A DNA stretch of 64,000 nucleotides from an uncultured Acidimicrobiia bacterium. GTDB lineage: Bacteria > Actinomycetota > Acidimicrobiia > Spongiisociales > JAOTWH01. The translations under genes and the position numbers were made by a program. Below the pieces are notes generated by a model. That model did not search any database. It was given only the letters and a program-made list of their open reading frames with translations, and had not been told where the DNA came from. Positions 574-23,469 of the stretch are shown here, piece by piece. The stretch spans positions 6,066 through 70,065 of the forward strand of contig CAXMQS010000074.1 in assembly GCA_964195995.1 (NCBI GenBank). Direction: 5' to 3'. Within the stretch, counting starts at the first letter, position 1. Each line of letters opens with the position of its first letter.

Positions 574-1338
574 CTACCAGGGGGGGAGGCCTGCGTCGAA
601 CACACCACCCGGGAAGCGGTCGAGCATCGACCCGGCGACGTGTAATGCCAGCCGGGTCTTTCCACTCCCTCCTACGCCCGTCAGCGTTACCAACCGGTTG
701 GTGCTCACGAGGTGGGTGATCGCCTCGCTCTCGGCTTCTCGACCCACGAATTCTGAACTCTGGGGGGGAAGGTTGTGGCGAACTTCTGCCGACCGAAGGG
801 GCGGGAAGTCAACCGACAGGCCGGGAGTCACCACTTGATAGACCCGTTCGGGATCATCGAAGTCCTTCAGCCGGTGGGCTCCCAAATCTCGCAGCTCGAT
901 GTCGGCGGGAAGCCGGTTGTCTATGAGGCTGCGGGTCGTGTAAGAGATGATGACCTGCCCACCGTGGGCGATGCCGGAGATGCGAGCGGCTCGGTTGACT
1001 TCGATGCCTATGTAGTCGTCGCCCCCCATGCGCGCTTCTCCGGTATGGGCTCCCATCCTGACCAGGACCTGGCCGCCCTCCCGCCACGAGGTGTTGTGAA
1101 GCTGCCGCTGTGCGGTCACTGTTGCGTTTACGCAGGCGAGGGGGGATTGGAAAACCGCGAAGAATGAGTCGCCTTCGGTCTTCACCTCAACGCCATCGTG
1201 AGCGGCGATGGCTTCCCGCATGATGTGGTTGTGCTCGGCGAGAACCTCGTCGAATTCAGTCCCGAGTCGCTGCACCATGCGAGTCGAGCCCTCGATGTCG
1301 GTAAACAGGTACGTAATGATGCCGGTCGGTAATGCCAT
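574..1338 (-). CDS. Class III adenylate/guanylate cyclase domain protein, truncated just after the Walker A of a STAND/AAA module
   Basis: ITYLFTDIEGST...KTEGDSFFAVF...RMGAHTGE...GIEVNRAARI is a cyclase catalytic domain. It is followed by FVGREAE...LTGVGGSGKTRLA, and a stop comes about 20 residues later. Family members normally continue for several hundred more residues (ATPase plus TPR/HTH). Confidence 0.75.
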   Translation of the reverse strand: MALPTGIITYLFTDIEGSTRMVQRLGTEFDEVLAEHNHIMREAIAAHDGVEVKTEGDSFFAVFQSPLACVNATVTAQRQLHNTSWREGGQVLVRMGAHTGEARMGGDDYIGIEVNRAARISGIAHGGQVIISYTTRSLIDNRLPADIELRDLGAHRLKDFDDPERVYQVVTPGLSVDFPPLRSAEVRHNLPPQSSEFVGREAESEAITHLVSTNRLVTLTGVGGSGKTRLALHVAGSMLDRFPGGVFDAGLPPW

Positions 1339-1691: not shown

Positions 1692-2630
1692 CTACCGCTC
1701 AACCGCGATGACCGGTCGAACCAGCGCCGTAGCCCGCTCGGGAACTTCCGACGCGAAGACCAGCACCGAGAGACCGAGGATCACGAGCGCACTCTGGTAG
1801 GTGCTGTGCAATCCGATGCCTCCTACCACCAGCAACCCGATGCCGACTGCGGTAAGCCCATCACCGCTCTTGACGATCATCACGAGGGCGTAGGTCAGGG
1901 TTCCGGCAGCCATCGCATATGCGAGCGCCGGGAGGTAGCCAGCTAACCCGAAGTTCCAGAGGAGCACGATCTTGGCGGTGGCTGGGGCCAATACGAGGGT
2001 CATCATCACAGCCCCACTGACCGCAGCCCCCCATGCGACCGCAGCCCCAGACGTCATCCTGGTTCGGGAGTAGACCAGCGCCATTGGTGCCGCTAGGACC
2101 AGTGTCTCGGCAGCCACCAGGAGCCACGGCGAGGCTTCTACGGGCCGGAGACCGCGGGCGGCAGCCTGTTGGGCGACTACGTAGAGGCCGCCGAGCAGGA
2201 AGCCTCCGCCGAATAAGAACAATGCCGGTCGCAGGCGTCGATCTGCCGCTGCGCATCCGACTGCAACCAGGCCGAACGAGGCCACGACGGCGACGGCGAG
2301 CAGCAGATCGTCGATGGCTCCGGCTCGCGCCAGGAACGCCGCTCCGACGAACACCGCTAAGGCCGTCGCCACGGCATGGTGGCCATGTTGGAGTGCAGCC
2401 CGCATGGCAAGTCCCAGAGCGGTGATCACGAGCACAACGGCCAGGTAGTAGGCGAACCTGCCCGACTCGGCAGCAGCCCGGTACGGAACTGCTGCGCGGT
2501 CGATGCCGGGGATGTGGATGGCGACTCGGGTTGCGGTCCGGAGGATGACGAGTTCAAAGACAATGACCACCAGTGCGACTTGCACCAACCACGGCAGCAA
2601 TCCGTCGCGAGGGGTGGGGGAGACCGCCAC
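1692..2630 (-). CDS. Polytopic membrane protein (about 10 predicted TM helices), unknown function; last gene of the oxidoreductase operon
   Basis: This uses the frame of ORF 1692..2726. The GTG at 2630 shares one base with the TAG stop of the gamma gene (TAGTG). The sequence is almost entirely hydrophobic Ala/Leu/Val/Gly-rich helices, and I recognise no family motif. Confidence 0.65.
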   Translation of the reverse strand: MAVSPTPRDGLLPWLVQVALVVIVFELVILRTATRVAIHIPGIDRAAVPYRAAAESGRFAYYLAVVLVITALGLAMRAALQHGHHAVATALAVFVGAAFLARAGAIDDLLLAVAVVASFGLVAVGCAAADRRLRPALFLFGGGFLLGGLYVVAQQAAARGLRPVEASPWLLVAAETLVLAAPMALVYSRTRMTSGAAVAWGAAVSGAVMMTLVLAPATAKIVLLWNFGLAGYLPALAYAMAAGTLTYALVMIVKSGDGLTAVGIGLLVVGGIGLHSTYQSALVILGLSVLVFASEVPERATALVRPVIAVER

Positions 2631-3628
2631 TATTCGGCTTGGTCCTGCTTGGGTGGTCGGGCCGCCACCTCGATCACGATGGCCAGCACGGCCAGTGAGC
2701 CGACGATGACGAGCAACGCGGCCCATGGAGGTCCGGGCTCACCCGAACTTACCCCGAAGTCGGGCGGCGGCGCCGCTACCGGAGGAGGTGCTGCGACTGC
2801 TCCGACTTCCAGCTTCAGGAATCCCGACACGGACTTCAGACCGTCCCTCTCCTCTGCGCTGCCGTCCCAGATCGCGAATGCGACGTCGATTTCCTGACCG
2901 TCGGCGAAAGCTGGCTGATCGGATCCCGGCGCCTGGAAGGGTCTGGCAAATACCACCGACCATTCGGTTCCGTCATGAACGCCGCTGCCCATTACCGCTT
3001 GCTCGTCGGCCGGAGTCAGTGTCCCGAAGCCGCCGGCCACCAGGTTCTGCACGGGACCGGAGCCGACTGCATAGACGTTGCCTGCAGCCTTGGCTGGGTA
3101 GAAGAGGTCGTCGGTCGACGGGTAGAGGTCGACGTAGCCGTGATCAGTTGTGGGTAGATCGTCGATGCCGGCCTCACTGTCGGCTCGCCACTGCCAGATG
3201 TTCACTGCGGCATCGGCCTGGCCCATACATATGGCGGGAACCGACGATGCGGGCTCGGAGGGGAACTGGATGGCGGCGCCGTCGGCGAAGTCCTCGACGG
3301 CCGTGGTGCCAGAGTCCACTGTGGTGTCCGACCAAGCCATCCGGATGTACAACACGTTCTCGTGGTTGACGCTGCGTATTTCGGCGATCGGAACGTTGCC
3401 TCCGCCGAGCGGAAACGTCACCTCTTGTGCGGTGAAGGGAACGTCGACCGCGGGAGCCTCATCCCACACCGAGCTGGCCGGGTCAAGACCGGGGTTCTGA
3501 CTCGCGGTGACGGAGGCCACGACGATGGCCTGCGCTACCGCCGGGTTAGCGTCCGCTAGCCGGAGGCCAACCGCTACCAACATCGCCACAGTGAGCACCC
3601 CCCACCGCAGCGTGCGGCCCGCCATCAT
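2630..3628 (-). CDS. Type II DMSO-reductase-family gamma subunit (EB_dh/DOMON-like heme-b domain) with N-terminal signal peptide and C-terminal TM anchor
   Basis: This uses the frame of ORF 2630..3682. The ATG at 3628 forms an ATGA overlap with the chaperone stop. The signal peptide reads MMAGRTLRWGVLTVAMLVAVGL...A. Family-like motifs are FADGAAIQFP, ICMGQADAAVNIWQWRA and FAIWDGSAEERDGLKS. A Pro-rich linker (APPPVAAPPP) precedes the TM helix WAALLVIVGSLAVLAIVIEVAA. Confidence 0.8.
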   Translation of the reverse strand: MMAGRTLRWGVLTVAMLVAVGLRLADANPAVAQAIVVASVTASQNPGLDPASSVWDEAPAVDVPFTAQEVTFPLGGGNVPIAEIRSVNHENVLYIRMAWSDTTVDSGTTAVEDFADGAAIQFPSEPASSVPAICMGQADAAVNIWQWRADSEAGIDDLPTTDHGYVDLYPSTDDLFYPAKAAGNVYAVGSGPVQNLVAGGFGTLTPADEQAVMGSGVHDGTEWSVVFARPFQAPGSDQPAFADGQEIDVAFAIWDGSAEERDGLKSVSGFLKLEVGAVAAPPPVAAPPPDFGVSSGEPGPPWAALLVIVGSLAVLAIVIEVAARPPKQDQAE

Positions 3629-4382
3629 GGCGCTGGCCGCGGTGGCAGCGACGCCTCGATGGCGGCCAGGGACGGACCACACCCGCCCTCGCCGCAGTCG
3701 ATCTCCTCCACTGGCGTTTCCGGGAGTGGCTGGTTCACAGACTCGGCGGGTGTCACCTCAAGCCGGTCGATCTCGCTAGCTAGCCAGCTGCCAAGCAAGA
3801 CGGCCAATGCCCGATAGAAGGGATGTGGGGCGACCAGTTCCACCCGCCGGGCGAAGCCCGGAGCCCAGCAGCCCAGGTGGTCGGAAACGAATAGCGCTTG
3901 GGTGTGACGGCACTCGGCTACATGTTCTGGGCTGAGCCGATCGAGGGCGTAGGCCTCTTTGCGATGCAGGAAGCTCATGAACTCGAGTTCCGTCGTGATG
4001 TGGTCGGGCCGTTCCCGCGCCTCACCACCGACCCGCAGGCCGTGAGCCGCGTAGAAACCGGCCACGTCGGCCATGACGTCTGCCTGTTGAAAGACGTCCT
4101 CGCCGCGGTACGCGGTCTCGTAGCTCGGGCAATCCCGGGATTCCACCTGGGGGAACAGCAGGAGGTGAGCGCTACGCAGCTCATCGAGCGGGGCTCGGCC
4201 CGCGGCTACGGCCTGGCGGAACGAGTGGTCGATGTCGTCATCCTCGAACCCGACCGCGTCCAGCAAGCCGGGAGCAGCCCGGTCGCCCACCGGGTACCCA
4301 AAGCCTCGAGCGAGGAATTCGTATACAACCCCGCGGGCCGCTGCGTCTGAGGACTCCCACACTGCGGTCATGCCTTCGGTCG

Positions 4383-4386
<4 letters not shown>
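3625..4386 (-). CDS. TorD/NarJ/DmsD-family redox enzyme maturation chaperone (delta subunit)
   Basis: The 253-aa ORF is acidic and cytoplasmic. ...HLLLFPQVESRDCPSYETAYRG...DVAGFYAAHGL...PDHITTELEFMSFL... is typical of the TorD-like chaperones of Ser/Clr/Ddh/Ebd-type operons. ATGA overlaps occur at both ends. Confidence 0.8.
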
Positions 4387-5607
<1,221 letters not shown>

Positions 5608-5618
<11 letters not shown>

Positions 5619-5919
5619 CGCCTCCCGTTCCGTACACCTCGCCGAGCAGCCCGTCCACGAACGCTGCGCCCCGACGGTTGAGGATCCCGTTCGGCCCTGA
5701 GAACTGTGATGAGGTGAAAAGCGCACGGACCCGTTCGGCCGACCAGCCGGCCATGGCGTACTCCTCGATGAAGACCCGGGCCGTGGCTTCGTCCGCGGCC
5801 CGATCCGACGCCACTGGGTACTCGACCTCCACCAAGGCGAACGGATCGTCGGCCTCGAAGTCTTTGGAAGGCGCTGGTCTCAGCGGTATCGGGATGCGGC
5901 GGACAGCGCTATCAGTCAT
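5608..5919 (-). CDS. Small acidic cytoplasmic protein (103 aa) of unknown function inserted between the alpha and beta genes
   Basis: This uses the frame of ORF 5608..6018. The ATG at 5919 forms an ATGA overlap with the alpha stop, and its 3-prime end overlaps the beta start by 11 nt. Third-position GC is high throughout. It has no Cys, no TM helix and no signal peptide. Sequence: MTDSAVRRIPIPL...FIEEYAMAGWSAERVRALF... Confidence 0.6.
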
Positions 5920-8900
5920 GTCAAGGTTCCTTCGACGGTCACCAGGCCACCGGCCACGTAGATCTGCATCTTTTGGTCCTCGGCGCCTGGGCTCTGCCCG
6001 GTCGTGCCACCCTTCCACGGACCCTGCCCTTCGAGCCCGCCGTCCTCCGCCTTTGTGACCCGCACCAGGGTCTCCTTAGGGCAGGTGTTGATGGCGTGGT
6101 TGTCGACGTCGAAGCCGAAGATGAATCCCATTCCTCCGGCCTTCTTGTGGAACAGTCCGTCCGTCTGGTGCATCGGCGGCGCCCAACCCCGGGTGATGCT
6201 TTGCTGACTGCCGTGGCGGAAGCTGGCCTGGTAGCCGGTCTCGGCCAGCGCCCGGCCGTCGGGACGGGTCTGCTGGGCGCGTACGGTGCGCGGCGTCGAC
6301 TGATAGAAGGCGTGCTTCAGCATCGTCACGCCGTTCGGATAGGCCGGGTTGAAGGTCACCCGGGCCATGAGCCGGGCCACCTGATAGAACGGATCGTCCT
6401 CGCTCCATCCGATGTATGGCCGGTCGGCGGGGTTGGCGTCGATCCAGATGTAGTCGCCGTTAGCCAGACCAAGGCCTTGAGCGTCATCGGGAGTCATGTG
6501 GAGCTGGGCATCACCAACCCCTGGGAGGCGAGTGTCTTCCCGGTACGGATCGGAGAAGTTGGAGTTCCAAATCCAGTTCCAGTCGGTCACAGCCCACGAC
6601 GAGTGGACCGAGTGCCGGGACTTGGGTGTGAGGCAGAACAGGTTGAAGCCCTGTTCCCATAGCGGATTTGTTGTGGCCTTGACCTCGGCCCACGACATGG
6701 CAACGTTGCGGACCTGGCGGAGGTCGGCGTCGACGGCATCGAGGGGAATGCCGTACGACTGGGGCCGGATGAAGGGGCTCGTCGAGACGATCACGTTGGG
6801 CAGATAGGGGGTGGCCTCGACGGCCTCGCGATGGACGATGAGGTTCTCTCCGAACTCGATGGCCTCTGGGATGTCGACGTAGGAGTGCATGCGCCCGGTG
6901 TCGGTGTAGAAGGGAAGGCTGTCGTTCACCTGCTCCAGGAAGGGGATCCGGGGGTATGTCCGGTACTGCATAAGCGCGCCACCCGGCTCTCCGTACTTGC
7001 CGTCCATGATGTCGGCGACTGTGTAGCCAGCAGTCGTGAACGATCCCTCCAACACGCGGTCGAGGTAGACCTCGCTGCGCTCTTCGAAGGAGAACTTGAA
7101 GTAATCCTCGAACCGCGTGTCGCCTGTGACATTGGCCAGGGCTCTGGCGACTCCTGCGAAAATGGCCAGGTCATCGCGGCTATCGAACAGCGGATCGATG
7201 CCACCCTTCCAAATCTGGAGGAAGGGGTTGGAGCACGAGCCAACCATCTCGAGAGTCTGCTGTTCGAGCCAGCTGTTGGCGGGAAATATGACATCGGCGA
7301 ACTCGGCAGAGCCAGTCCATTCGATCTGCTGGTCAATTATCAGATCAACCTTGGGGTTCACGTTGCGAACCAGCTCGTAGCTCCACTTGGCCTGGTTGAT
7401 GAAGTTGGCGTTGTTGTACCAGATGACCTTGGTGGGACTGGAGAGGTGAGAGGTTCCAGTGAAGACCTTGCGCCCGGCCTCTGGCGTGTCGACGATCAGC
7501 GGGTGATCGCCTATTCCCCAATAGCTCGTTTCCTCTCCGTGAATGGTGTGACGCTGGTTGCCCGGCCCGTAACGATCGGTGTCCTCGAGGAGCGGATGGA
7601 AGGGGTCCTCGTTGACATAGCCGCCGACACCGGGCCCATGCCACGGCGCCGCGTGGAATATGCCGCCTTTGTAATTGCCGGCCCAGGTGCTGACCCCTGC
7701 GCCAGGAGCACCGATATTGCCGGTGAGCATCGCCACCAGGTAGACGGCTCGATTGTGCAGGGTTCCGTGGAAGTAGTGGTTGACGCCCTCGCCGACGTGA
7801 ATCGAAGCAGGCTTGATAGTCGCCAGGTCGGTGATGAGCTGCTCAATGAGGTTCAGCGGTGATCCTGTGATGTCGACCACAGTCGTCAGGTCGTAGTCGT
7901 TGAGATGCTCCCGATACATGGTGAATGCAGTAGCGACCTCCACTGTCGAACCATCGGCCAGGGTGACGTCGCCCCGGAAGTCGAGCTGAGGATCAATGCC
8001 GGCGGAATCAAGAGAGTCGCCGACGTCTTCTCTGGTGATGGCCTTCATCTCTCCGGTGGTTTCGTCGACGACGACCCGGTCACCGAGCTCTGCGTACTGC
8101 TCGGGTGTCATCGCCTGGATGGCGAAGCTGTAATCGTCGGCCCCCAGGCCGGGGGTGTAGTTGGGGAACATCTCGTCGGCACGGAGCCGCACCAACGTGT
8201 CGAGGCGTACCAACAGTGGCATGTCGGTGAACCGCTTCAGGAACTGCGCGTCATACAGGTTGCGGTCGATCAGCGCCTTGGCGACTCCGAGGAAGAGTGC
8301 CGTGTCGGATAGGCCCGCTCGGACTGGAATCCAGTAGTCCGACTTGGATGACTGCGGGCCGTACTCGGGAACGATCGACACCAGCTTGCCGCCCCGCTCC
8401 ATCACCTCGTGGAAGAAATGGCTCTCCGGCATCTTGTTTTCCACCAGGTTCTTTCCCACCTGGATGAGGAGGGCGCTGTTGCGAAGATCGTTGAAATCGA
8501 CGTCGGCCGTCTGCAGGCCGTGGACGAACGGGAAACCAGGGGCCTGGTCGCCTCGCCATGTGTATTCGGACCAATCGCGGGCGCCGACCGCCTCGTCTTC
8601 GCCGACGCCGCGTACCGCGGCATCGAGCAGCGACAGCGAGTTAGCGAAGCGGAAGAGGGCGAACTTGCCGGCGACGCCGTGAAGGGGCAGTGACGAGCCC
8701 AGCTTCATGGTGCGGACACCTGACTCCTCCCAGAACTCGAGCATCTCGGGCGGGTAGCCGTCCTCGTCGATGAGGCGCCGCCGCCCCTCCTCGCCGCTGT
8801 AGGTCTCGGCAACGGCCTGGAGCGCCCGGGCTACGTAGTCGTCCGCCTCATCCCAAGTGGCGCGGACGAAGTCGTCGTCTCCGCGGGCGTCGAAGCGGTA

Positions 8901-9377
8901 GGTCGTGCGAAGCTCCGGATTGTCCGAGAGCGACGGGAAGCCATCATCGGCCCAGGCCTTCCATCCCGCTCGCAGCATCGGCCCCTTGAGGCGGTACGGG
9001 CCGTAAACCCGACGGTGCAATGTGTAACCCTTGAGACAACCCCGCGGGTTCCATGCTGCCGTCGAGCGGTTGCCGTCCAGGTCGCCGTAGTTGTCGCCGT
9101 CGTAGTTCTGCTCGATGCGTACCACCACGCCGTTGCGGACCATGGCCCGCAGGCGGCACATGTGGGTGTCGTTGGGCGCACATATGAAGGTGAAGCTGTC
9201 GTCGTAGGCGTACTGGTCGCGGTAGATGCGCTCCCAGCCCCGGGTGGGGTATTCGAGGAGTGGGTTGTCGACGCCGACCGCAGCCTGCAGGAACGAGAGG
9301 TGGTGGGCTCCGATGTACCAGCCGGCAGCCGCACCACTCGAGAGCTTCAGGAACGTGCGGCGGCTGAGCTCCGGCAC
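5916..9377 (-). CDS. Tat-exported molybdopterin oxidoreductase, type II DMSO-reductase-family alpha subunit (NarG/NxrA-like), 1153 aa
   Basis: The GTG start follows a GAGGAGG RBS. A twin-arginine motif SRRTFLK lies at residues 5-11. The FS0 motif is C66-x3-D70-x3-C74...C114. WRGDQAP aligns with the NarG Mo-ligand Asp region, and PESHFFHEVMERGGKLVSIVPEY resembles NarG TPDAHFFTEVRYKGTKTVAVTPDY. Confidence 0.9.
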   Translation of the reverse strand: MPELSRRTFLKLSSGAAAGWYIGAHHLSFLQAAVGVDNPLLEYPTRGWERIYRDQYAYDDSFTFICAPNDTHMCRLRAMVRNGVVVRIEQNYDGDNYGDLDGNRSTAAWNPRGCLKGYTLHRRVYGPYRLKGPMLRAGWKAWADDGFPSLSDNPELRTTYRFDARGDDDFVRATWDEADDYVARALQAVAETYSGEEGRRRLIDEDGYPPEMLEFWEESGVRTMKLGSSLPLHGVAGKFALFRFANSLSLLDAAVRGVGEDEAVGARDWSEYTWRGDQAPGFPFVHGLQTADVDFNDLRNSALLIQVGKNLVENKMPESHFFHEVMERGGKLVSIVPEYGPQSSKSDYWIPVRAGLSDTALFLGVAKALIDRNLYDAQFLKRFTDMPLLVRLDTLVRLRADEMFPNYTPGLGADDYSFAIQAMTPEQYAELGDRVVVDETTGEMKAITREDVGDSLDSAGIDPQLDFRGDVTLADGSTVEVATAFTMYREHLNDYDLTTVVDITGSPLNLIEQLITDLATIKPASIHVGEGVNHYFHGTLHNRAVYLVAMLTGNIGAPGAGVSTWAGNYKGGIFHAAPWHGPGVGGYVNEDPFHPLLEDTDRYGPGNQRHTIHGEETSYWGIGDHPLIVDTPEAGRKVFTGTSHLSSPTKVIWYNNANFINQAKWSYELVRNVNPKVDLIIDQQIEWTGSAEFADVIFPANSWLEQQTLEMVGSCSNPFLQIWKGGIDPLFDSRDDLAIFAGVARALANVTGDTRFEDYFKFSFEERSEVYLDRVLEGSFTTAGYTVADIMDGKYGEPGGALMQYRTYPRIPFLEQVNDSLPFYTDTGRMHSYVDIPEAIEFGENLIVHREAVEATPYLPNVIVSTSPFIRPQSYGIPLDAVDADLRQVRNVAMSWAEVKATTNPLWEQGFNLFCLTPKSRHSVHSSWAVTDWNWIWNSNFSDPYREDTRLPGVGDAQLHMTPDDAQGLGLANGDYIWIDANPADRPYIGWSEDDPFYQVARLMARVTFNPAYPNGVTMLKHAFYQSTPRTVRAQQTRPDGRALAETGYQASFRHGSQQSITRGWAPPMHQTDGLFHKKAGGMGFIFGFDVDNHAINTCPKETLVRVTKAEDGGLEGQGPWKGGTTGQSPGAEDQKMQIYVAGGLVTVEGTLT

Positions 9378-10167: not shown

Positions 10168-11766
10168 ATGTCTCACTTACCGGCCGCCGACGCATCGGGA
10201 GGTTCCCCTATTTCTGGCCAAACCCTTCGACTGGGTGAACTCGCCGCCACGTTTGCGCTTGCCCAGGACAATGCGTTCGGGCAGCCGCTCGAGTCGCAGC
10301 TGAGGTCATGCCTCCTGGCCGTGTGGATGTGCGATGAGGCGGGCTTCGACGTGGACCTACGTGACACTGTCTACTGGGTGGGTTTGCTGCGGTACATCGG
10401 GTGTACCGGCCACGCCCACGAGGTTGCCACCGTCTTCGGAGACGAGATCGCCATCCGCGCCCAGACGCTCATACACGACTCCGCCGATCCGAATGAGGTC
10501 ATGAGGGATGTGATCGCGTTCGCAACTGCCCCTCATCCTCCCGAGAAGCACGACGAGATCATCGAGGGGCTCCAGGCAGGAGCCCACGATTGGGCAGTCC
10601 ACAACTTCGCAACCGGATGCGAAGTGGGCGACATTCTGCTCGAGCGGCTTCACTTCGACGACGACGTGCGCAACGCCCTGGCATTCACTTTCGAGCGGTG
10701 GAACGGAAACGGGTTCCCAAACGGAGCCAAAGGTGAAGACATTCCGCTGCCGATGCGGATCGTGCACGTGAGCCACGACATGGAGGTGATCGGCCGCCGC
10801 TTCTCCCCAGGTGAAGCGCTCGCCGCTGTGCGCGATCGACGGGACCGCGCCTACGACCCCGACCTCGCGGACCTGTTCGCCACGCACGGAGCCGATTGGT
10901 TTGAGTTGCTCGACAAGCTCGAGCCATGGGACAGTGTGCTTGACGAAGAGCCGCAACCCCACCGCACCCTGGAGGACGCCGAACTCGACAGCGCTCTGCT
11001 GGTGGCGGCAGACTTCATCGACCTGAAATCACCATACATGGCGGGCCATAGTCGCCGTTGCGCGCAGCTTGGCGCCGACGCCGCCCGGCTGCTGGGCTTC
11101 AGCAAGGCGGAAGTGACCGACCTCGAGAGGGCCGCTCTCGTTCACGAGTTCGGCACCACCGCGATTCCGAACTCGATCTGGGACAAGCCGGGCCCGCTCA
11201 CCCGTGCCGAGCGCGATCGAGTCGAATTGCACCCATTGTTAACCGAGCAGATGTTGCGCCGGTCCACCGCCATGGAGGCTCTCAACCCAGTCGCGGCGTG
11301 CCACCACGAGAAGGCCAACGGGTCCGGCTACCACAAGGGTTGGCGAGCCGCTGACGTGGAGGCGGGGGCGCTGGTGTTGGAAGCCGCCGACATCTACGTC
11401 GGCCTGACCACGGACCGGGCCGATCGTTCCGCTAAGTCTGGGAGCGATGCCGCTGTCGAGCTCCGCAGGTTGGCAAGAGAGAGCTTGCTCGAGCACGATG
11501 CCACCGAGGCTGTTTTAGCGGCGGCCGGCCACGGTCAATCCGGCTCGAAACGTCGCAAGCGCCAGCACCCCGGTGGGCTCACGAATCGCGAGGTGGAGGT
11601 TCTGGTACTCGCCGCCCGCGGGCTCACCACCCAGCAGATCGCCGACCAACTCTTCATCTCGCCCAAGACCGCCGACCACCACATCCAGCACATCTACACA
11701 AAGATCGAGGTTTCGACCCGAGCCGCCGCCGCCCTATGGGCAATGCAAAACGGCGTGGTTAGCTGA
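10168..11766 (+). CDS. LuxR-family transcriptional regulator with N-terminal HD-type domains (degenerate HD-GYP)
   Basis: The C-terminus LTNREVEVLVLAARGLTTQQIADQLFISPKTADHHIQHIYTKI is a LuxR/GerE HTH. Upstream are VHEFGTTAIP...ERDRVELHP...CHHEKANGSGYHKG (an HD-GYP-like domain with HE for HD and GYH for GYP) and a further HD-like domain (LLRYIGCTGHAHE...IHDSADP). Confidence 0.8.
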   Translation: MSHLPAADASGGSPISGQTLRLGELAATFALAQDNAFGQPLESQLRSCLLAVWMCDEAGFDVDLRDTVYWVGLLRYIGCTGHAHEVATVFGDEIAIRAQTLIHDSADPNEVMRDVIAFATAPHPPEKHDEIIEGLQAGAHDWAVHNFATGCEVGDILLERLHFDDDVRNALAFTFERWNGNGFPNGAKGEDIPLPMRIVHVSHDMEVIGRRFSPGEALAAVRDRRDRAYDPDLADLFATHGADWFELLDKLEPWDSVLDEEPQPHRTLEDAELDSALLVAADFIDLKSPYMAGHSRRCAQLGADAARLLGFSKAEVTDLERAALVHEFGTTAIPNSIWDKPGPLTRAERDRVELHPLLTEQMLRRSTAMEALNPVAACHHEKANGSGYHKGWRAADVEAGALVLEAADIYVGLTTDRADRSAKSGSDAAVELRRLARESLLEHDATEAVLAAAGHGQSGSKRRKRQHPGGLTNREVEVLVLAARGLTTQQIADQLFISPKTADHHIQHIYTKIEVSTRAAAALWAMQNGVVS

Positions 11767-15737: not shown

Positions 15738-16304
15738 TTAGTCGCCTCGTCCCAACAGCCGCTTGAAGAACTTGCCTATCCAGCTCAACAGGCCGCTGAG
15801 GAAGAGAGAGAGGCCCTTTACGTCTCCGGCTTCAATGGCGTCAGCTTCCTCGACGGTCTCCGCCGACATCTTGGCCTCTAGGCACTCCACGAATTCGTTG
15901 ATGAGTCGCTTGGTGATCTCTTCGACCAGACCGCTTCGTCCGAACTGGGCGATGGCTCCCGACAGTGATATGTCGGCGTCCACCGTCACCGAGGACCCAC
16001 TGTCGATGGCCGTCACCGCATAGTCGACCTCTACCTGACCGCGGTTGCCGCCACTGCGGTCGACGCCCTTTCCCGCGATGTGGCCCCTCCGAGCTGCGTT
16101 GTCGCGGGTCACCGTGGCGTCACCCTCGAATTTGGCAGCCATCGGACCCAGCTTGATTTGGACGGAACCTTCGTAGGTACCGTCGCCATGGTCAGCAATG
16201 AGCTCAGCGCCGGGGAGGCACTGTGTGACCGATGGAACATCAGCGAACGCGGTCCACACGGCATCGACTGGCCGCTTTACCTCGAACGTGTTACTCAATC
16301 GCAC
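15738..16304 (-). CDS. coxG: CoxG-like SRPBCC-family protein
   Basis: The gene has a GTG start. The N-terminus (M)RLSNTFEVKRPVDAVWTAFADVPSVTQCLPGAEL...YEGSVQIKLGPMAAKFEG is typical of carbon-monoxide-dehydrogenase subunit G family proteins. The C-terminal tail is amphipathic. Confidence 0.8.
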   Translation of the reverse strand: MRLSNTFEVKRPVDAVWTAFADVPSVTQCLPGAELIADHGDGTYEGSVQIKLGPMAAKFEGDATVTRDNAARRGHIAGKGVDRSGGNRGQVEVDYAVTAIDSGSSVTVDADISLSGAIAQFGRSGLVEEITKRLINEFVECLEAKMSAETVEEADAIEAGDVKGLSLFLSGLLSWIGKFFKRLLGRGD

Positions 16305-16362
16305 CGTTGGCCCCTTCGTGATCTCGACGATAACGACCCGTTGGAGGTGACGGTGTGACGGC

Positions 16363-17031
16363 CTAGGCCTGCGCCAGCAGCAGGTCGGTTACGCGCTCGA
16401 AGTCCGGTCCAGTGATGTCCGGCTGTGGGAACAGCGGGTTACGCACCATGCCGGGCCGCATGATGTAGGCACCACGGCAGCCGACGCTCATGGCACCGGC
16501 AACATCCCAATCGTGGGCCGCCACCATGGTCATTGCCGACGGCTCAACTCCCAGCTCGGCTGCTGCCATGAGGTACACCGCGGGGGCTGGCTTGAAGTGG
16601 GCCGTCGGAGTGACAGACATGATCCGTTCGAAGTAGTGGGCGATCCTGGCGCTTGTGAGCTGGTTTTCGGCCGCCTCTTGCGGGGAGTTCGTGAGGGCGG
16701 CCATCCGAAACCCCGCGTTCTCGAGCCGATCCAGGTTGGTAGCGACGTCTTCGTGAGCAGGCAGGCTGGTCATCGCCGCAGCCATGGCGGCCAGGTCGTC
16801 AGCAGTCAATGACACCTGGTGCTGCTCCGCCATCATTTGTAGCGAGGCTGTACCGACGGAAACGAAATCCTGGTGTTCCCCGATGATCGTCAAGCTGAGC
16901 GCGTTGCGCAGTACCAAGCCGAACCACTGCCGGCGCACACCGACATCGCCAAACATACGCTGGAAGAGCGGATCGAGCGCCCGCAGGTCGAGCAGCGTTT
17001 CGTTAACGTCGAATACCAGCACACCGGCCAC
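16363..17031 (-). CDS. HAD-superfamily hydrolase, type II haloacid-dehalogenase-like
   Basis: The GTG start follows an AAGGAG RBS. HAD motif I is VFDVNETLLDL, followed by ...ALTNS... and ...AAHDWDVAGA.... Confidence 0.75.
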   Translation of the reverse strand: MAGVLVFDVNETLLDLRALDPLFQRMFGDVGVRRQWFGLVLRNALSLTIIGEHQDFVSVGTASLQMMAEQHQVSLTADDLAAMAAAMTSLPAHEDVATNLDRLENAGFRMAALTNSPQEAAENQLTSARIAHYFERIMSVTPTAHFKPAPAVYLMAAAELGVEPSAMTMVAAHDWDVAGAMSVGCRGAYIMRPGMVRNPLFPQPDITGPDFERVTDLLLAQA

Positions 17032-17256
17032 TGTCGCTCCTTGATAACCGATCCCACGCTAGAGCAACGGTGGGGGACCCGCCGGCTTCTCGCACCCAGG
17101 GAGCAGGGTGGCTAGTGTCGACCAAGGACCCCTGGGAGGCGACGATGGCACAACCCACTGTTTGTGTTGCCCCCTTCGACTTCGTTGTCACCGTCCCCCG
17201 CTCTCCCCCGTAGACCGCCGCCAGCATCTGCAATCGAGTCATCAGAGAGGAGAGGC

Positions 17257-17805
17257 GTGGAAGTATCTATCAAGGTCAATGGCAAGAGTTACGAGCGTGA
17301 TATCGAGGCGCGCACGTTCCTGGTCGACTTCATTCGGGAGGATCTCGGTCTAACTGGCACCAACGTGGGATGTGATACCACACAGTGCGGTTCGTGCACA
17401 GTCCATATGAATGGGGCGGCCGTCAAGTCATGCACGGTGCTAGCAGTGCAGGCCGACGGTGCCTCGATCGCGACTATCGAAAGCTTGGCGAGCGACGGCG
17501 AGTTGCACGCCATGCAGCAAGCGTTCACCGATAAGCACGGGTTGCAGTGCGGCTTCTGCACGCCCGGGATGATCATGACTGCTGTCAAGCTGGTCGAGTC
17601 TCATCCGGACATCTCCGAAGACGACATCCGGCACGGACTCGAAGGCAACCTATGCCGCTGCACCGGATATGAGAACGTTGTGCGGGCCGTGGCTGAGGGG
17701 GCCCGCCAGTTCGACCCTCATAGTCCCTGGGAGATGGAACCGGCCGAGCACAAGATCACTCTTCGAGAGGCCGAGCGACGCGCTCGGGAGAGGAGCGGAG
17801 CATGA
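17257..17805 (+). CDS. coxS: (2Fe-2S)-binding small subunit of a xanthine-dehydrogenase/CODH-family molybdo-hydroxylase (CoxS-like)
   Basis: The GTG at 17257 follows GAGAGGAGAGG and is in frame with ORF 17164. Motifs are [16 protein letters not shown] and [11 protein letters not shown]...CRCTGY. Confidence 0.88.
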
Positions 17806-20168
17806 CCACCACACAACGAGCGTTCGGCTCGTCCGTCCGGCGATTGGAAGATGCCCGGTTCATAACCGGGCAGGGCCGGTACACCGACAATCTCACCCAG
17901 CCCGGAATGGCCCACATGGTGGTGCTGCGATCTCCATACGCCCACGCCGACATCACTGGTTTCGATGCCAGCGAGGCACTGGGGATGCCCGGCGTGGTTG
18001 GCGTCTTCAACGGCCAGGACATGGATGATGCCGGATTCGGTGCCATGCCGTGTGCCTGGGTCGTTCCCGATTCGGATACCAAAACACCCGCCTACCCGCC
18101 GATCGCCATCGGCACGGTTCGATTTGTAGGAGATGCGGTGGCCATCGTTATCGCGGAAACCGAGGCGCAGGCGCGCGATGCTTCGTACGCGATAGATGTG
18201 ACCTACGACACACTGGACGTGGTTGTGAACGGTCGGGACGCCACGCAGGACGACGCTCCGCTCGTGCACGACGATGTAGAGAACAACCAGTGCTTCCACT
18301 GGACAGTCAGCGGCGGCGAGGTCGACGCCGCCTTCGAGCAGGCCGATGTGGTGGTCGGAGAGACCATCGTCAATCAGCGGCTGATCCCGACTGCGATGGA
18401 ACCGCGAGCTGTTCTGGCGCGGTGGGACTCGGCGATGGGTGAGGTGACGATGTGGAGCACCAGCCAGATACCCCACATCACCCGTTTCCTGCTGTCGCTG
18501 ACCACCCCGGTGCCCGAGCACAAGATCCGCGTCATCGCTCCCGATGTAGGCGGCGGCTTTGGATCGAAACTTGCTAACTACCCGGAAGAGAACATGTCCG
18601 TGTTCGCTGCCCGCCAGGTTGGCCGACCGGTCAAGTGGACCGAGACGCGCTCGGAGAACTTCCTCGGCACTATCCATGGACGCGACCACATCGCCGACGT
18701 GGAGCTCGCTGCCAAGAGCGACGGCACCGTCCTAGGGTTGAGGGCTCAGACGTGGGCGAACCTGGGGGCTTACCTGTCTACGGCCTCCACCGGTGTGCCC
18801 ACAATCCTCCATGGGCTGATGTTGTCCGGTGCTTACAACATCCCCGCGATCCATGAAGACGTGTACGGGGTGTTCACCAATACCACGCCGGTCTCCGCTT
18901 ATCGCGGGGCGGGGAGACCAGAAGCCACATTCATGGTCGAGCGCATGATGGATCTGTTGGCCAATGAGCTCTCGATGGATCCCGTCGAGCTGAGACGAAA
19001 GAACCTCATAGAGCCATTCACCGATGGTCATGAGGTGGCGACTGGGCTCATCTACGACACGGGGAACTACGAGCCGGCCCTCGACCAAGCTCTCGAGATG
19101 TACGGCTACGAGGAGGCACGAAAACAACAGACTGCGGCAAGAGCCAAGGGTCGGCTCGTCGGAATTGGCGTTACCACCTACGCCGAAATATGCGGCCTCG
19201 GTCCGTCCGAAGTGGCGGGCGCGGTGGGGTTCGGCGGCGGTTTGTGGGAGAGCGCCATCGTGCGTTTCCATCCCACCGGCAAGGTCCAGCTGATGGTGGG
19301 GGTCAGCCCTCACGGTCAAGGGGAGGAAACGACCTTTGCTCAGATTGTGGCCGACCAGCTCGGCGTCATGGTTGAGGATGTCGACGTTGTTCACAGTGAC
19401 ACGGCGCTCACGCCCATGGGTTGGGGCAGCTACGGCAGCCGTACCACCCCGGTAGCGAGCGGAGCGATAATGGGCGCCATCGAGCAGCTGAAGGAAAAGG
19501 GCACCAAGATCGCCGCCCACCTGCTCGAAGCCGCCGAAGAGGACGTCGAGTTCGCTGACGGTCTGTTCTCGGTAAAGGGCTCACCAGAGCAAGGCAAAAC
19601 CATTCAGGACATTGCACTGGCTGCCAACACCGCCTGGAGCATGCCCGATGGAGTTGAGCCCGGCTTCGAAGCGACCGCGTTCTTCGACCCGTCCAACTTC
19701 GTTTACCCGTTTGGGACCCACATCGCCCAGGTGGAAGTCGATCCGGAGACTGGAGAGATCGATTTCCAGCGCTACATAGCCGTCGACGACTGCGGGCCGA
19801 TCATCAACCCGATGATCGTGGAAGGTCAGATCCAGGGCGGCATCGCCCAGGGCGCGGCACAGGCTCTGTGGGAAGGCGCCCACTACGACGATCAGGGCAA
19901 CCTGCTGTCGGGGTCGTTGATGGACTACGCCATCCCCAAGGCGGACTTCCTTCCCAAGTTCGAACTCGGCAAGACCGAGACGCCGACGGATGTGAACCCG
20001 CTCGGCGTCAAGGGTGTCGGCGAGACCGGAACGATTGCGTCGACCCCGACCGTGTACAACGCGGTCATGGATGCCTTGGCTCCGCTCGGAGTACAGCAGA
20101 TCGATATGCCGCTCACCCCGGAGCGGGTGTGGCGAGCTATCGGCGACGCCTCGAAGGGAGGTAAGTGA
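17802..20168 (+). CDS. coxL: Molybdopterin-binding large subunit, form-II CoxL-like (AYRGAGR active-site loop)
   Basis: The 788-aa ORF has an ATGA overlap with coxS. The AYRGAGR motif is encoded at 18897-18917, rather than the AYxCSFR motif of true CO dehydrogenases. Confidence 0.85.
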
Positions 20169-21037
20169 TGCAAACTGCACCGTTTGACTACTACAGGCCT
20201 GAAACGCTGAGTGAGGCGGTTGATCTCCTGACCAGCGTCGATGGGGCCCGACCGATCGCAGGAGGCCACAGCCTCCTCCCGGCAATGAAGCTGCGGGTTG
20301 CCAACCCGGCTGCGCTCGTTGATCTGGCCCAGATTCCAGACCTGCGCGGCATCAGCCGGAACGGAGGTTCGCTGAAGATCGGGGCACTCACAACCCATGC
20401 GGCTGTTGCGGCCTCGGATGTCGCCAAGTCAGACTGTCCGGTGCTGGCGGACACGGCATCGCACATCGGGGATCCACAGGTGCGCAATCGAGGGACCATT
20501 GGCGGAAGCCTCTCTCATGCCGATCCGGCGGCCGATTACCCCGCGCTGATGCGAGCCCTCGGCGCGACAGTCCACGTGACAGGTGCCGGCGGCAGCGAGC
20601 GTGCCATTGCTGCCGACGACTTCTTTGTCGGTCTCTTCACCACCAGCTTAGAAATCGGGGAGCTGGTGACGGCGGTTGAGGTGCCTGTGATGGAAGCGGG
20701 ACAAAGCGGCGCCTACATGAAGCACCGCCACCCAGCGTCGAGCTACGCCGTGGTCGGCGTCGCCGCCATCGTGACGGTGGACGGTGGGTCGTGCACCGCG
20801 GCCGCCATCGGTGTGGGAGGCGTGACGGGCAAACCTGAGCGAGCCAGCGCTGCCGAAGCGGCGCTGGTGGGGCAGACGCCCACCGACGAGACCATCGCAG
20901 CCGCCGCCGCAGCGGTCGCAGGTGACCTGGCCAACCCGATTGGAGATCTGTATGCCTCCGGTGAGTTTCGGGTTCATCTGGCCTCGGTGCTGACAAAGCG
21001 CGCTCTGAGTGAGGCATTCGGCGACAGCTCTGCCTGA
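20165..21037 (+). CDS. coxM: FAD-binding medium subunit (CoxM-like)
   Basis: (M)[21 protein letters not shown]...AGGHSLLPAMKLR...IGGSLSHADPAADYP is typical of the FAD_binding_5/CO_deh_flav_C family. The start overlaps the coxL stop. Confidence 0.85.
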   Translation: MMQTAPFDYYRPETLSEAVDLLTSVDGARPIAGGHSLLPAMKLRVANPAALVDLAQIPDLRGISRNGGSLKIGALTTHAAVAASDVAKSDCPVLADTASHIGDPQVRNRGTIGGSLSHADPAADYPALMRALGATVHVTGAGGSERAIAADDFFVGLFTTSLEIGELVTAVEVPVMEAGQSGAYMKHRHPASSYAVVGVAAIVTVDGGSCTAAAIGVGGVTGKPERASAAEAALVGQTPTDETIAAAAAAVAGDLANPIGDLYASGEFRVHLASVLTKRALSEAFGDSSA

Positions 21038-21107
21038 TCGGGATCGCATCAAGCTGGGCGGGCAACCGCTCGGCTGGACGCGCGACTCCGATTAGGTTGC
21101 GGGTGCA

Positions 21108-21989
21108 ATGAATAACGTCGATGAGGTACTCCAGGGCCTGGCGGATCAGCGCTACGTAGCGGAGCGATCGTTGGGCGTTGCGGTGCACCTCGCCCTGCAG
21201 CTGGGCAAGCCTCTCTTCCTCGAAGGGGAGGCCGGCGTCGGCAAGACCGAGGTGGCAAAGGTGCTCGCCTCCATCCTCGACACCCCACTCATCCGGCTGC
21301 AGTGCTACGAGGGGCTCGACGTTGGTCACGCCGTATACGAGTGGGATTACGCCCGTCAGATGCTGGCCATCCGCCTGATCGAGGCCAGAGGCGAAGGCGC
21401 GCAAGCAGGGGTCGACGACATCATGAGTCGCGAATATCTGGTGGCGCGACCGCTGCTGCAAGCCGTGGAGGCGACGGCCAAGGGCGAGCGGCCTGTGCTG
21501 CTGATCGATGAGCTCGACCGGGCCGACGAGGAGTTCGAGGCCTACCTCCTCGAGATGCTGAGCGACTTCCAGGTCACGATTCCCGAGATCGGGACGATCG
21601 CGGCGGATCGCCCTCCTGTAGTGATCTTGACCTCCAACCGGACCCGCGAGATCCACGACGCCTTGAAGCGCCGCTGCATCTACCACTGGATCGACTATCC
21701 CAATTTTGAACGCGAAGTCGAGATCGTGCTCCTCAAGATTCCTGACGTGCCCCAAGAGCTTGCCGCCGACCTGGCCGGTGCGATGGAGAAGCTCCGCTCC
21801 ATGGATCTCTTCAAGCCCCCGGGCGTTGCCGAGACGCTCGACTGGGCGGCGGCCCTGGCTGTGCTGGGCGCAGCGCGCCTTTCTCCGGAGGTAGCGGACG
21901 ACACGCTGGGCGTGATTCTGAAGTATCAGGAGGACATCGAGCGACTCCGGGCCGGAGGGGTCGAGCAGCTCCTCCCCTCTGTCGGGTGA
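21108..21989 (+). CDS. coxD: MoxR-family AAA+ ATPase (CoxD-like)
   Basis: Walker A is LEGEAGVGKT and Walker B is VLLIDELDRADEE. The protein is 293 aa and lies immediately downstream of coxSLM. Confidence 0.85.
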   Translation: MNNVDEVLQGLADQRYVAERSLGVAVHLALQLGKPLFLEGEAGVGKTEVAKVLASILDTPLIRLQCYEGLDVGHAVYEWDYARQMLAIRLIEARGEGAQAGVDDIMSREYLVARPLLQAVEATAKGERPVLLIDELDRADEEFEAYLLEMLSDFQVTIPEIGTIAADRPPVVILTSNRTREIHDALKRRCIYHWIDYPNFEREVEIVLLKIPDVPQELAADLAGAMEKLRSMDLFKPPGVAETLDWAAALAVLGAARLSPEVADDTLGVILKYQEDIERLRAGGVEQLLPSVG

Positions 21990-23140
21990 TGGCAGAGCCT
22001 CTCACCCACAACCTCGTTCACTTCACGCGCTACCTGCGCGCCCAAGGGCTTCGAGCAGTTCCGAGCACGACGATCGATCTCATCGAAGCCGCCCGTGCAG
22101 TAGGGCTAGAGGACAAGGACGACGCCTACTTCGCGTTCCAGGCGGTCACCGTGTCCCGACCCGAGGACATCCCCATATTCGATGCCGCATTTGACCTCTT
22201 CTTCGGAACCGGCCAGCACCCGCTTACGCCGATCGAGCCGATCGAGCTAAAGGTGCATCCGCGTGGTCCTCGAGTGCAAGTTGTCGCTCCGACCACCGTG
22301 AAGGCCGACCTTGGTGATCATGATGTCTCGGACGTGGCCGACCAAATGGGTGCCAGCGCCGTCGAGCGTCTGGCAACTCGGGACTTCTCGGACCTGAGCG
22401 AGGCTGAGCATGCTGAGGTGCAGCGGCTGATCGCCCGGATGGTGTGGAAGCCGGCAACTGCGCTCAGCAGGCGATGGACGCCTTCGTCCAAAGGGAGTAG
22501 GCCGGACTTGCGGAGGACGTTACGGCAGATGACGGGGCCGGTCCGCGATCTCATGCCACTGGCTATGAGTACTCCCAAGCTGCGCCGCCGTCCGCTGTTG
22601 GTGATCGCAGACGTGAGCGGGTCGATGGAGCGCTATACAGAAATGCTCTTGTATTTCGTGCACGCTGCCAGGGGCCGGCTGGGAAGAGTGGAAGCCTTCG
22701 TGTTCTCCACCGGTCTGTCCCACATCACGAGAGAGCTTCGCCATCGCGATCCGCGGGTGGCATTGACGCAGGTGGGTCGAGCCGTCCACGACTGGTCGGG
22801 TGGGACGCTCATCGGCGAGGCTTTCGCAGAATTCAACCGCACCTGGGGTCGTCGAATCACCCGAGGAGGACCGGTGGCGGTGGTGATCTCCGACGGCTGG
22901 GATCGCGGAGATCCCACCACGCTGCGCAAGGAGTTCGCCACGTTCGCTCGCAGTGTCCACCGGGTGGTGTGGCTCAATCCGCTCGCCGGCAGGACTGGAT
23001 TCGAGCCGCAGACACGAGGCATGCGGGCGGTGCTTCCCTTTGTCGACGACTTCTTGCCGGTCGGCAACCTGGTCGACCTCTCTGCCGTCGTTCGACTTCT
23101 AGAGTCCGTCCCCAAACGCAAGGAGCTGGTGCGGAGATGA
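21986..23140 (+). CDS. coxE: VWA-domain protein (CoxE-like)
   Basis: The start overlaps the coxD stop. The C-terminal VWA/MIDAS-like segment is [14 protein letters not shown]...[11 protein letters not shown]. This is the canonical MoxR partner. Confidence 0.8.
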
Positions 23141-23469
23141 AGGACGCTCTCGAGACGTACGCGCGGTGGAAATCTGAAGGGAAGGATGTGGCGGTAGCCA
23201 CCGTTGTCCGCGTCCAGGGCTCGGCGCCGCGCCCCGAAGGCGCCAAGTTCCTCGTTTCGTCGGCGGGCGATATGGAGGGCTCAGTGTCGGGCGGCTGTGT
23301 TGAGAACGACGTGTTCCTGCATGCCCAGCAGGTCATTGAAGCCGGCGAACCTCGTCTCGTCACGTACGGGATCGCCGATGGTGAGGCATTCGAGGTTGGT
23401 CTGGCCTGCGGCGGAACGATCCAGGTGCTGATCGAACAGTGGTGGCGGAAGCGATCGAGAGGCTGGTAG
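23137..23469 (+). CDS. XdhC/CoxI-family accessory protein, N-terminal domain only (110 aa)
   Basis: An ATGA overlap joins it to cox[21 protein letters not shown]...[12 protein letters not shown]...[13 protein letters not shown] matches the XdhC_CoxI domain. It overlaps the next XdhC ORF by 31 nt in a different frame. Confidence 0.7.

Follow-up and report, generated by a model that had tools for sequence, protein, structure and literature searches.

A predicted 3Cys/1Asp FS0 cluster in a Kuenenia/Nitrospira-type nitrite oxidoreductase operon of an Acidimicrobiia-like chromosome

Whether an aspartate standing in place of a cysteine at the FS0 iron-sulfur cluster of a molybdoenzyme is a cluster ligand, and what it tells about the enzyme and its host, is the question raised by an nxrA-like gene on contig CAXMQS010000074.1 of an uncultured Acidimicrobiia bacterium, from which a stretch of 64,000 nucleotides (hereafter the window) was analysed. 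The gene is predicted to encode the catalytic alpha subunit of a nitrite oxidoreductase (NXR) or nitrate reductase, carrying a molybdenum-bis-molybdopterin guanine dinucleotide cofactor (Mo-bis-MGD). We find that Cys66, Asp70, Cys74 and Cys114 are very probably the four FS0 ligands of a Kuenenia/Nitrospira-type NXR catalytic subunit exported by the twin-arginine translocation (TAT) pathway. A crystal structure has shown a 3Cys/1Asp cluster of this kind before; the new part is the Acidimicrobiia-like host. The open reading frame (ORF), which starts with GTG at 9377 and has an AGGAGG ribosome-binding site 5 nt upstream, reads on the minus strand ...SFTFICAPNDTHMCRLRAMVRNG...NPRGCLKG. Direct codon checks on this strand placed Cys66 at TGT (9182-9180), Asn69 at AAC (9173-9171), Asp70 at GAC (9170-9168), Cys74 at TGC (9158-9156) and Cys114 at TGT (9038-9036), and the coordinates and residues given for the four candidate ligands in the initial annotation were found to be exact. 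The N-terminal sequence carrying the twin-arginine motif is MPELSRRTFLKLSSGAAAG..., and residues R6, R7 and F9 of this motif were at least 90% conserved in an alignment of 37 sequences. Cysteine is scarce in the protein (6 per 1153 residues) and three of these residues belong to the FS0 motif.

The identity of the protein was determined by comparison with known structures and families. Its best match in the PDB by phmmer was Kuenenia NxrA (7b04_B; 1498.8 bits, query residues 3-1149 against chain residues 2-1147), followed at much lower scores by PcrA (188.6 bits), ethylbenzene dehydrogenase (EBDH; 133.9 bits) and E. coli NarG (about 101-107 bits); the NarG-H49C mutant chain 3ir5 scored above wild-type NarG because its cysteine matches Cys66. 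The query and Kuenenia NxrA are about 56-60% identical and align without gaps from residue 38 to about 150, with FTFICAPNDTHMCRLRAMVRNG against FTYCCSPNDTHACRIRAFVRNN and NPRGCLKG against NPRMCLKG. HMMER and MAFFT alignments equated C66, D70, C74 and C114 with Kuenenia C67, D71, C75 and C115 and N69 with N70, and both programs agreed in pairing C66, N69, D70, C74 and C114 with H49, N52, C53, C57 and C92 of E. coli NarG (NC_000913), by which the NarG correspondence formerly drawn by eye (H49, C53, C57 and C92) was reproduced. In PcrA the four ligand columns hold H/C/C/C in the HMMER alignment. The crystal structure of Kuenenia NXR, solved at 3.0 Å, assigns the binding of FS0 to C67, D71, C75 and C115 (PMC8387239), and the earlier statement that the aspartate is a ligand in that structure is borne out by what is given there for Asp71. 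The same paper describes this aspartate as 'noted previously', citing its reference 3 (Lucker 2010), places the histidine of nitrate reductase (NAR) and EBDH in the Cys67 position and reports that Asp275 coordinates molybdenum (PMC8387239). The FS0 aspartate goes unmentioned in the Nitrospina genome paper and in the Nitrotoga paper. In the query, the counterpart of Asp275 is Asp277, whose context shows the same Y-4x-D-11x-QT pattern as Kuenenia.

The profile libraries were less specific. Pfam recognised the molybdopterin oxidoreductase domain PF00384, and both TIGR03479, which represents the alpha subunits of type II dimethyl sulfoxide (DMSO) reductases (Ser/Clr/Ddh/Ebd/Pcr), and the narG model TIGR01580, which represents NarG and the Nitrobacter-type NXR, scored well below their cut-offs (311.1 bits against 984.75 and 140.6 bits against 1084, respectively). 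NCBIfam holds no NxrA-specific model and every NCBIfam hit of the protein fell below its cut-off. An AlphaFold2 (AF2) model with an overall predicted local distance difference test (pLDDT) score of 70.5 and a predicted template modelling score (pTM) of 0.74 superposed on the NxrA chains of 7b04 with template modelling (TM) scores of 0.87-0.90 at 56% identity, compared with 0.59-0.76 for PcrA and about 0.5 for NarG; the model supports the overall predicted fold only. Among the features that characterise the NxrA type, the predicted protein has the 3Cys/1Asp FS0 motif, the molybdenum-ligand aspartate, the substrate asparagine, the TAT signal, similarity in full-length sequence and fold, and the partner subunits. 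The alignments support the four residues as the expected FS0 ligands of a Kuenenia/Nitrospira-type NXR.

The motif was strictly maintained among relatives. A homologue set was assembled from 120 hits (63-100% identity) and 12 cluster members, and the C..ND T..C pattern was present in 125 sequences, i.e. all the N-terminally complete ones that were classified; the seven left unclassified comprised five that begin downstream of the motif and two that gave a spurious match. With each GTDB species represented by a single genome, scanning yielded 80 loci (54-77% identity), and C-x2-N-D-T-x2-C-x39-C occurred in 71/71 of those having the N-terminal region. Over these 71 loci both synonymous codons were used at every ligand position with the residue constant, Asp70 being encoded by GAC in 61 and GAT in 10. 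In the 37-sequence alignment C66, N69, D70, C74, C114 and D277 were invariant, and the remaining cysteines (715, 915 and 1099) were not conserved. A C-x3-D-x3-C pattern arose anywhere in 0.17% of shuffled versions of NxrA. A chance or pseudogene origin of the motif was also considered and ruled out, the ORF being intact, the GC content at third codon positions high and the residues strictly conserved.

To place the aspartate in the wider family, we searched 50%-identity clusters exhaustively with HMMER and aligned full-length representatives of the hits with the query, close homologues and NarG. All sampled sequences of the NXR group, whose identity to the query extends down to about 41%, had the C-D-C-C arrangement in the four ligand columns, except for a single C-E-C-C sequence (P0143, CADPEGHGC); clusters bearing the names SAR202/Dehalococcoidia, Gaiellaceae and Tectomicrobia were among those with C-D-C-C. 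The adjoining group (Thermincola, Obscuribacterales and the haloarchaeon Halorussus) and several more distant sequences had C-C-C-C, NarG and two others had H-C-C-C, and one distant sequence (P0173) had D-C-C-C, with the aspartate in the first ligand position (D-x3-C-x3-C). An isolated C-D-C-C was seen outside the NXR clade in one Bathyarchaeia sequence of 30% identity. The ligand diversity of FS0 in the family, traced to sequences P0140, P0142, P0143, P0145, P0152, P0173 and P0275, exceeds the Asp-or-His picture of the literature. The molybdenum-ligand column held aspartate in 29/32 sampled members, NarG included, with serine in P0147 and glutamate in P0275; P0141 is without the N-terminal FS0 segment, yet retains the molybdenum-ligand aspartate. 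In a crude neighbour-joining tree of unnamed representatives and NarG, with no named nitrifier references, the query grouped with the Asp/Glu sequences.

The published alignment gives a concordant view of named organisms, with 'ND' in four anammox genera, three Nitrospira species, Nitrospina, Nitrotoga and Hydrogenobaculum and 'NC' in Beggiatoa sp. 4572_84, Thiocapsa KS1, Nitrobacter, Nitrococcus and E. coli (PMC8387239 supplement). The aspartate had been described in the initial annotation as a hallmark of Nitrospira, Kuenenia and related NarG-like proteins of Hydrogenobaculum and Beggiatoa; this holds for Nitrospira, the anammox bacteria (with the Kuenenia structure) and Hydrogenobaculum, and is not supported for Beggiatoa sp. 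4572_84, the one Beggiatoa sequence in that alignment, which has cysteine (PMC8387239 supplement). A wide spread of C-x3-D-x3-C over unrelated type II clades, which would have spoken against its use as a marker, was not seen in the sample. As the aspartate is confined there to the NXR clade, apart from the one archaeal sequence, it is a good enzyme-clade marker. The proposal that it marks a lineage is therefore to be read for the enzyme clade and not for the organism, the clade spanning many phyla, including reported nitrate reducers (PMC10732223). Judged from its distribution, the motif marks an enzyme clade, neither an organism nor a catalytic direction. In practice, C-D-C-C can serve as a quick diagnostic for the alpha subunit of Kuenenia/Nitrospira-type NXR against the all-Cys neighbour clade and against the H-C-C-C NarG/Pcr/Ebd types; for the enzyme clade itself the residue pattern is textbook and the biochemistry is not new.

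In mechanistic terms, FS0 would be a [4Fe-4S] cluster lying a few angstroms from the proximal pterin, and electrons would pass between the Mo-bis-MGD, with Asp277 as its predicted ligand and Asn69 positioning the substrate, and FS0. From FS0 the path would lead through the four clusters of NxrB (three [4Fe-4S], one [3Fe-4S]) and end at a Met/Lys-ligated haem b in a membrane-anchored NxrC. The carboxylate of Asp70 would replace the thiolate of NarG C53 and Cys66 would replace NarG His49, and with these two exchanges the cluster would therefore be 3Cys/1Asp and not 3Cys/1His. Binding of iron by Asp70 in the query protein is inferred by homology from a structure at about 56-60% identity. That the oxygen ligand tunes the potential of FS0 to the high-potential nitrite/nitrate couple is a literature proposal, put forward in the structure paper with reference to Bak and Elliott 2014 (PMC8387239).

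Several points weigh against the assignment of Asp70 as a ligand or against its proposed effect on the potential. Other Asp-ligated clusters shift the potential in varying sign. The main text of the structure paper gives no measured effect of the aspartate on the FS0 potential, and its reference structure 7B04 has a resolution of just 3.0 Å (PMC8387239); ligation by Asp70 in the query is predicted from this homologue and not from a direct structure or spectroscopy. Furthermore, the pLDDT of the AF2 model, which contains no cofactor, falls below 50 in the cofactor loops at residues 68-71, 110-127 and 271-294 (about 9174-9165, 9050-8997 and 8567-8496 in the window), and the model is silent on ligand geometry because its confidence collapses in the FS0 and molybdenum loops. 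A drop of this sort is to be expected when a protein is modelled from a shallow alignment without its cofactors, and it warns against judging ligand geometry by models of this kind.

These points leave room for an explanation in which Asp70 is not a cluster ligand and is conserved, for example, for substrate or proton handling by Asn69, another residue or solvent completing FS0. The direct adjacency of Asp70 to the substrate-positioning Asn69, the unreliable model of this loop and the limited resolution of 7B04 would all agree with it. However, the homologue structure assigns the corresponding aspartate as a ligand (PMC8387239), there is no alternative cysteine or histidine near Asp70 (the three cysteines outside the FS0 set being unconserved), the Asp70 column is a cysteine ligand in NarG and PcrA, and the sole natural substitution seen within the clade is glutamate, likewise a carboxylate. 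We consider this explanation very improbable, and the assignment of Asp70 as an oxygen-donating FS0 ligand is preferred.

The motif lies in a complete operon (Table 1), which is more interesting than the motif itself. Six genes in the order nxrA-orfX-nxrB-chaperone-nxrC-membrane protein, with nxrA first, overlap at their start and stop codons, the junctions nxrA/orfX, nxrB/chaperone and chaperone/nxrC being ATGA, the junction orfX/nxrB an 11-nt overlap and the junction nxrC/membrane protein TAGTG. The ATG of orfX overlaps the TGA of nxrA and its own TGA lies in the overlap with the ATG of nxrB, the ATG of the chaperone gene overlaps the TGA of nxrB, and the ATG of nxrC at 3628 overlaps the TGA of the chaperone gene. 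The ATGATG start of nxrB is preceded by GGGAGG. The NxrB-like protein matched Kuenenia NxrB (7b04_A) with 585.7 bits from ORF residue 39 onwards, and 15/15 cysteines of its four cluster motifs (three [4Fe-4S], one [3Fe-4S]) are identical to those of Kuenenia NxrB. In the NxrC-like protein, which has an N-terminal signal peptide and a C-terminal hydrophobic/transmembrane helix, M153 and K283 (ORF residues) align with the Kuenenia haem ligands M155 and K305.

Table 1. Positions, in the 64,000-nt window, of the predicted NXR operon, its motifs and the molybdenum hydroxylase cluster
Feature	Position	Strand	Remarks
nxrA-like gene, catalytic Mo-bis-MGD alpha subunit	5916..9377	-	1153 aa; predicted Kuenenia/Nitrospira-type nitrite oxidoreductase/nitrate reductase
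TAT motif S5-R-R-T-F-L-K11, NxrA signal peptide	9345..9365	-	aligns with KLTRRAFLQ of Kuenenia NxrA
FS0 motif Cys66-x2-Asn69-Asp70-x3-Cys74	9156..9182	-	three of four predicted [4Fe-4S] ligands and the substrate-positioning Asn, by alignment
Cys114 in NPRGCLKG, predicted fourth FS0 ligand	9036..9038	-	aligns with Kuenenia C115 and NarG C92
Asp277 in YTWRGDQAPG, predicted Mo ligand	8547..8549	-	aligns with Kuenenia Asp275 (YTWHGDQAPG)
orfX, conserved 103-aa protein	5608..5919	-	coupled in translation to the adjoining nxrA and nxrB
nxrB-like gene, Fe-S beta subunit	4383..5618	-	start at Met37/38 of a long ORF; Pfam Fer4_11
NarJ/TorD-type assembly chaperone gene (NxrD-like)	3625..4386	-	PF02613, 3.7e-21; TIGR03482 'type II enzyme chaperone', 81 bits
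nxrC-like gene, haem b gamma subunit	2630..3628	-	PF09459 EB_dh, 1.6e-28; match to 7b04_C, 95.9 bits
Multi-pass membrane protein gene, last in operon	1692..2630	-	start GTG 2630 or ATG 2726; GTG overlaps nxrC TAG
coxG	15738-16304	-	
coxS	17164-17805		
coxL	17802-20168		active-site loop AYRGAGR, form II-like
coxM	20165-21037		
coxD-like AAA gene	21108-21989		
coxE, von Willebrand factor type A (VWA) gene	21986-23140		
XdhC/CoxF-like gene	23439-24233		

The two accessory genes of the operon were followed across the related loci. In about 30 loci an orfX homologue sits at the corresponding place. The conserved core of the protein is DP..LV...D...ARC.vEEYA..G...LF...RG..FV...VFG; a profile search gathered 128 clusters, every one annotated as 'hypothetical'. 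No Pfam match was obtained for the query orfX and a search with the single sequence returned the query alone. Its AF2 model (pLDDT 87) consists of four helices and found no match in a PDB fold search. The product could be an NXR maturation factor. The membrane protein had no Pfam or NCBIfam hit; it has about 8-9 hydrophobic segments, only one invariant histidine and invariant stretches that include ELxxLRxxTRTxxHIP, WNxG and GGxGxxSTYQ, and in 24 Acidimicrobiia/Chloroflexota loci nxrC is followed immediately by a homologue of 31-39% identity. It may be a membrane partner of NXR. Two types of synteny were distinguished in the scan (loci L002-L081). Acidimicrobiia and Chloroflexota have the order nxrA-orfX-nxrB-chaperone-nxrC-membrane protein. 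In Planctomycetota, Myxococcota and others the order is nxrC-nxrA-nxrB-chaperone, and both orfX and the membrane protein are absent; two Acidobacteriota loci (L029 and L077) have nxrC upstream and retain an orfX homologue. The operon of the window is flanked by signalling genes, an adenylate/guanylate cyclase fused to a STAND/AAA_16 NTPase (574-1338, minus strand) on one side and an HD-GYP-type (HD_5) protein with a C-terminal LuxR/GerE helix-turn-helix domain (10168-11766, plus strand) on the other, which are not conserved beside nxr in related loci.

The window has a GC content of 63.7% and carries housekeeping genes for EF-G, citrate synthase, ThrRS, HisRS, AspRS, SecDF, RelA, RuvB and Lhr. 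It also encodes a carbon monoxide dehydrogenase (CODH)-type molybdenum hydroxylase cluster (15738-24233) composed of coxS-L-M-D-E-F and coxG. The closest relatives of the NxrA (68-82% identity) are mostly from metagenome-assembled genomes (MAGs) of Acidimicrobiia, with some from Nitriliruptorales and Chloroflexota, and at 57-64% identity numerous sequences come from non-anammox Planctomycetota, Acidobacteriota, Gemmatimonadota and other groups. In public data, over 100 close relatives carry no label beyond 'molybdopterin-dependent oxidoreductase'. Our literature search returned nothing specific on Kuenenia-type NXR in Acidimicrobiia; a cautious, KEGG-level mention of potential NXR in Actinobacteriota (PMC11411797) was the only one of its kind found. 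What stands out is the complete and tightly coupled NXR operon in an Acidimicrobiia-like chromosome, together with its two uncharacterised co-occurring accessory genes.

As far as sequence goes, the motif does not fix whether the host oxidises nitrite or reduces nitrate. Kuenenia-like NxrA genes have previously been noted in non-anammox Planctomycetota, where the direction could not be read from sequence; Thermogutta terrifontis and Ca. Methanoperedens, called nitrate reducers, fall in the same major NarG/NxrA clade, and Kuenenia NXR itself is called bidirectional (PMC10732223). If the motif marked a true nitrite-oxidising enzyme, the host would be an unrecognised actinobacterial nitrite oxidiser. 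The identity of about 56-60% to Kuenenia NxrA would suit this, since it resembles the roughly 60% between bona fide Nitrospira or Nitrospina NxrA and the Kuenenia protein (PMC8387239 legend), as would the complete, periplasmic-type subunit set with its high-potential-type Met/Lys haem b, the membership of the enzyme in a large clade of Acidimicrobiia and Chloroflexota MAGs and the neighbouring CODH-like cluster, which suggests an aerobic lifestyle. Nevertheless, we hold this to be doubtful, as reported nitrate reducers share the clade and the bidirectional Kuenenia enzyme leaves the direction unassignable from sequence (PMC10732223), Hydrogenobaculum, described as a hydrogen oxidiser and not a nitrifier, has the aspartate too (PMC8387239), and a Pfam scan detected no gene for CO2 fixation, a terminal oxidase or a nitrite transporter among 36 ORFs of the window, about nine smaller ORFs being left out.

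The enzyme may instead be a respiratory nitrate reductase facing the periplasm, its 3Cys/1Asp FS0 being an inherited trait of the clade without bearing on direction, and to this we give a probability a little short of even. The reported nitrate reducers of the clade and the bidirectional Kuenenia enzyme count here in its favour (PMC10732223), along with the spread of the clade over many heterotrophic phyla (Planctomycetota, Acidobacteriota, Myxococcota, Chloroflexota and Actinomycetota). Against it, the contents of the window offer no argument for anaerobic respiration, and the Met/Lys haem b is of a high-potential type, which fits a role as electron acceptor for nitrite oxidation no less well than one in quinol-driven nitrate reduction (PMC8387239). 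A broader proposal, which we regard as speculative and rather unlikely, is that the Acidimicrobiia and the Chloroflexota sharing the operon are nitrite oxidisers that have escaped notice, or else use the nitrite/nitrate couple facultatively and reversibly, with a membrane-anchored NXR and two clade-specific accessory proteins, the small, cytoplasmic four-helix orfX product and the membrane protein, forming a new maturation or electron-transfer module. If these enzymes do oxidise nitrite, an abundant group of soils, sediments and saline lakes would be added to the list of nitrite oxidisers, and such relatives would need to be counted in nxrA-based surveys.

Among known systems, the NXR-ABC of Kuenenia (7B04; Chicano et al. 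2021, PMC8387239) is the nearest, being the best PDB match for the alpha, beta and gamma subunits (1498.8, 585.7 and 95.9 bits). The predicted enzyme resembles it in the 3Cys/1Asp FS0, the molybdenum-ligand aspartate, the substrate asparagine, the Y-4x-D-11x-QT pattern, the 15 cysteines of NxrB, the Met/Lys haem b and the TAT signal of the alpha subunit. It differs in its host, which is an anammox planctomycete there and Acidimicrobiia-like here, in sequence (about 56-60% identity) and in its attachment, the Kuenenia enzyme being soluble and forming tubules with NXR-T whereas the NxrC of the query has a C-terminal transmembrane helix; neither the operon nor the scanned ORFs of the window yielded a homologue of NXR-T. 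Loci of the Planctomycetota type, including the anammox-like locus L036, are without the orfX and membrane protein found in the query operon. The NxrA of Nitrospira, Nitrospina and Nitrotoga and the NarG-like protein of Hydrogenobaculum share 'ND' at FS0 with the query in the published alignment (PMC8387239). These are periplasmically oriented type II enzymes like that of the query. Their nxrC genes are often unlinked.

E. coli NarGHI (1Q16) and the cytoplasmic, Nitrobacter-type NXR share with the query the superfamily, the chain of clusters, the positions of the FS0 ligands, the molybdenum-ligand aspartate and Asn52. In NarG, however, FS0 is bound by His49/Cys53/Cys57/Cys92 (3Cys/1His), so that the non-Cys ligand comes first and not second as in the query, and NarG further differs in sequence (about 23% identity), in its cytoplasmic location and in its dihaem membrane subunit NarI, in contrast to the EB_dh-type haem b subunit encoded here. 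PcrAB (4YDD), EBDH (2IVF) and the Ser/Clr/Ddh enzymes are, like the query, TAT-exported members of the type II DMSO reductase family, whose gamma subunit is of the EB_dh type and whose chaperone is TorD-like. The alpha-beta-chaperone-gamma order of the query resembles serABDC/clrABDC. For EBDH a 3Cys/1His coordination of FS0 has been reported (PMC8387239). PcrA likewise differs from the query in having H-x3-C-x3-C at the FS0 columns, and identity to this group in structural alignments is about 18-21%. Elsewhere, [4Fe-4S] clusters with an Asp ligand occur in the ferredoxin of Pyrococcus furiosus (Asp14) and in the NB-protein of dark-operative protochlorophyllide oxidoreductase (DPOR), where a carboxylate replaces a thiolate. 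On these cubane clusters the carboxylate alters both the redox potential and the spin state, and the unique iron can become labile. The folds of the P. furiosus ferredoxin and the DPOR NB-protein are unrelated to NXR.

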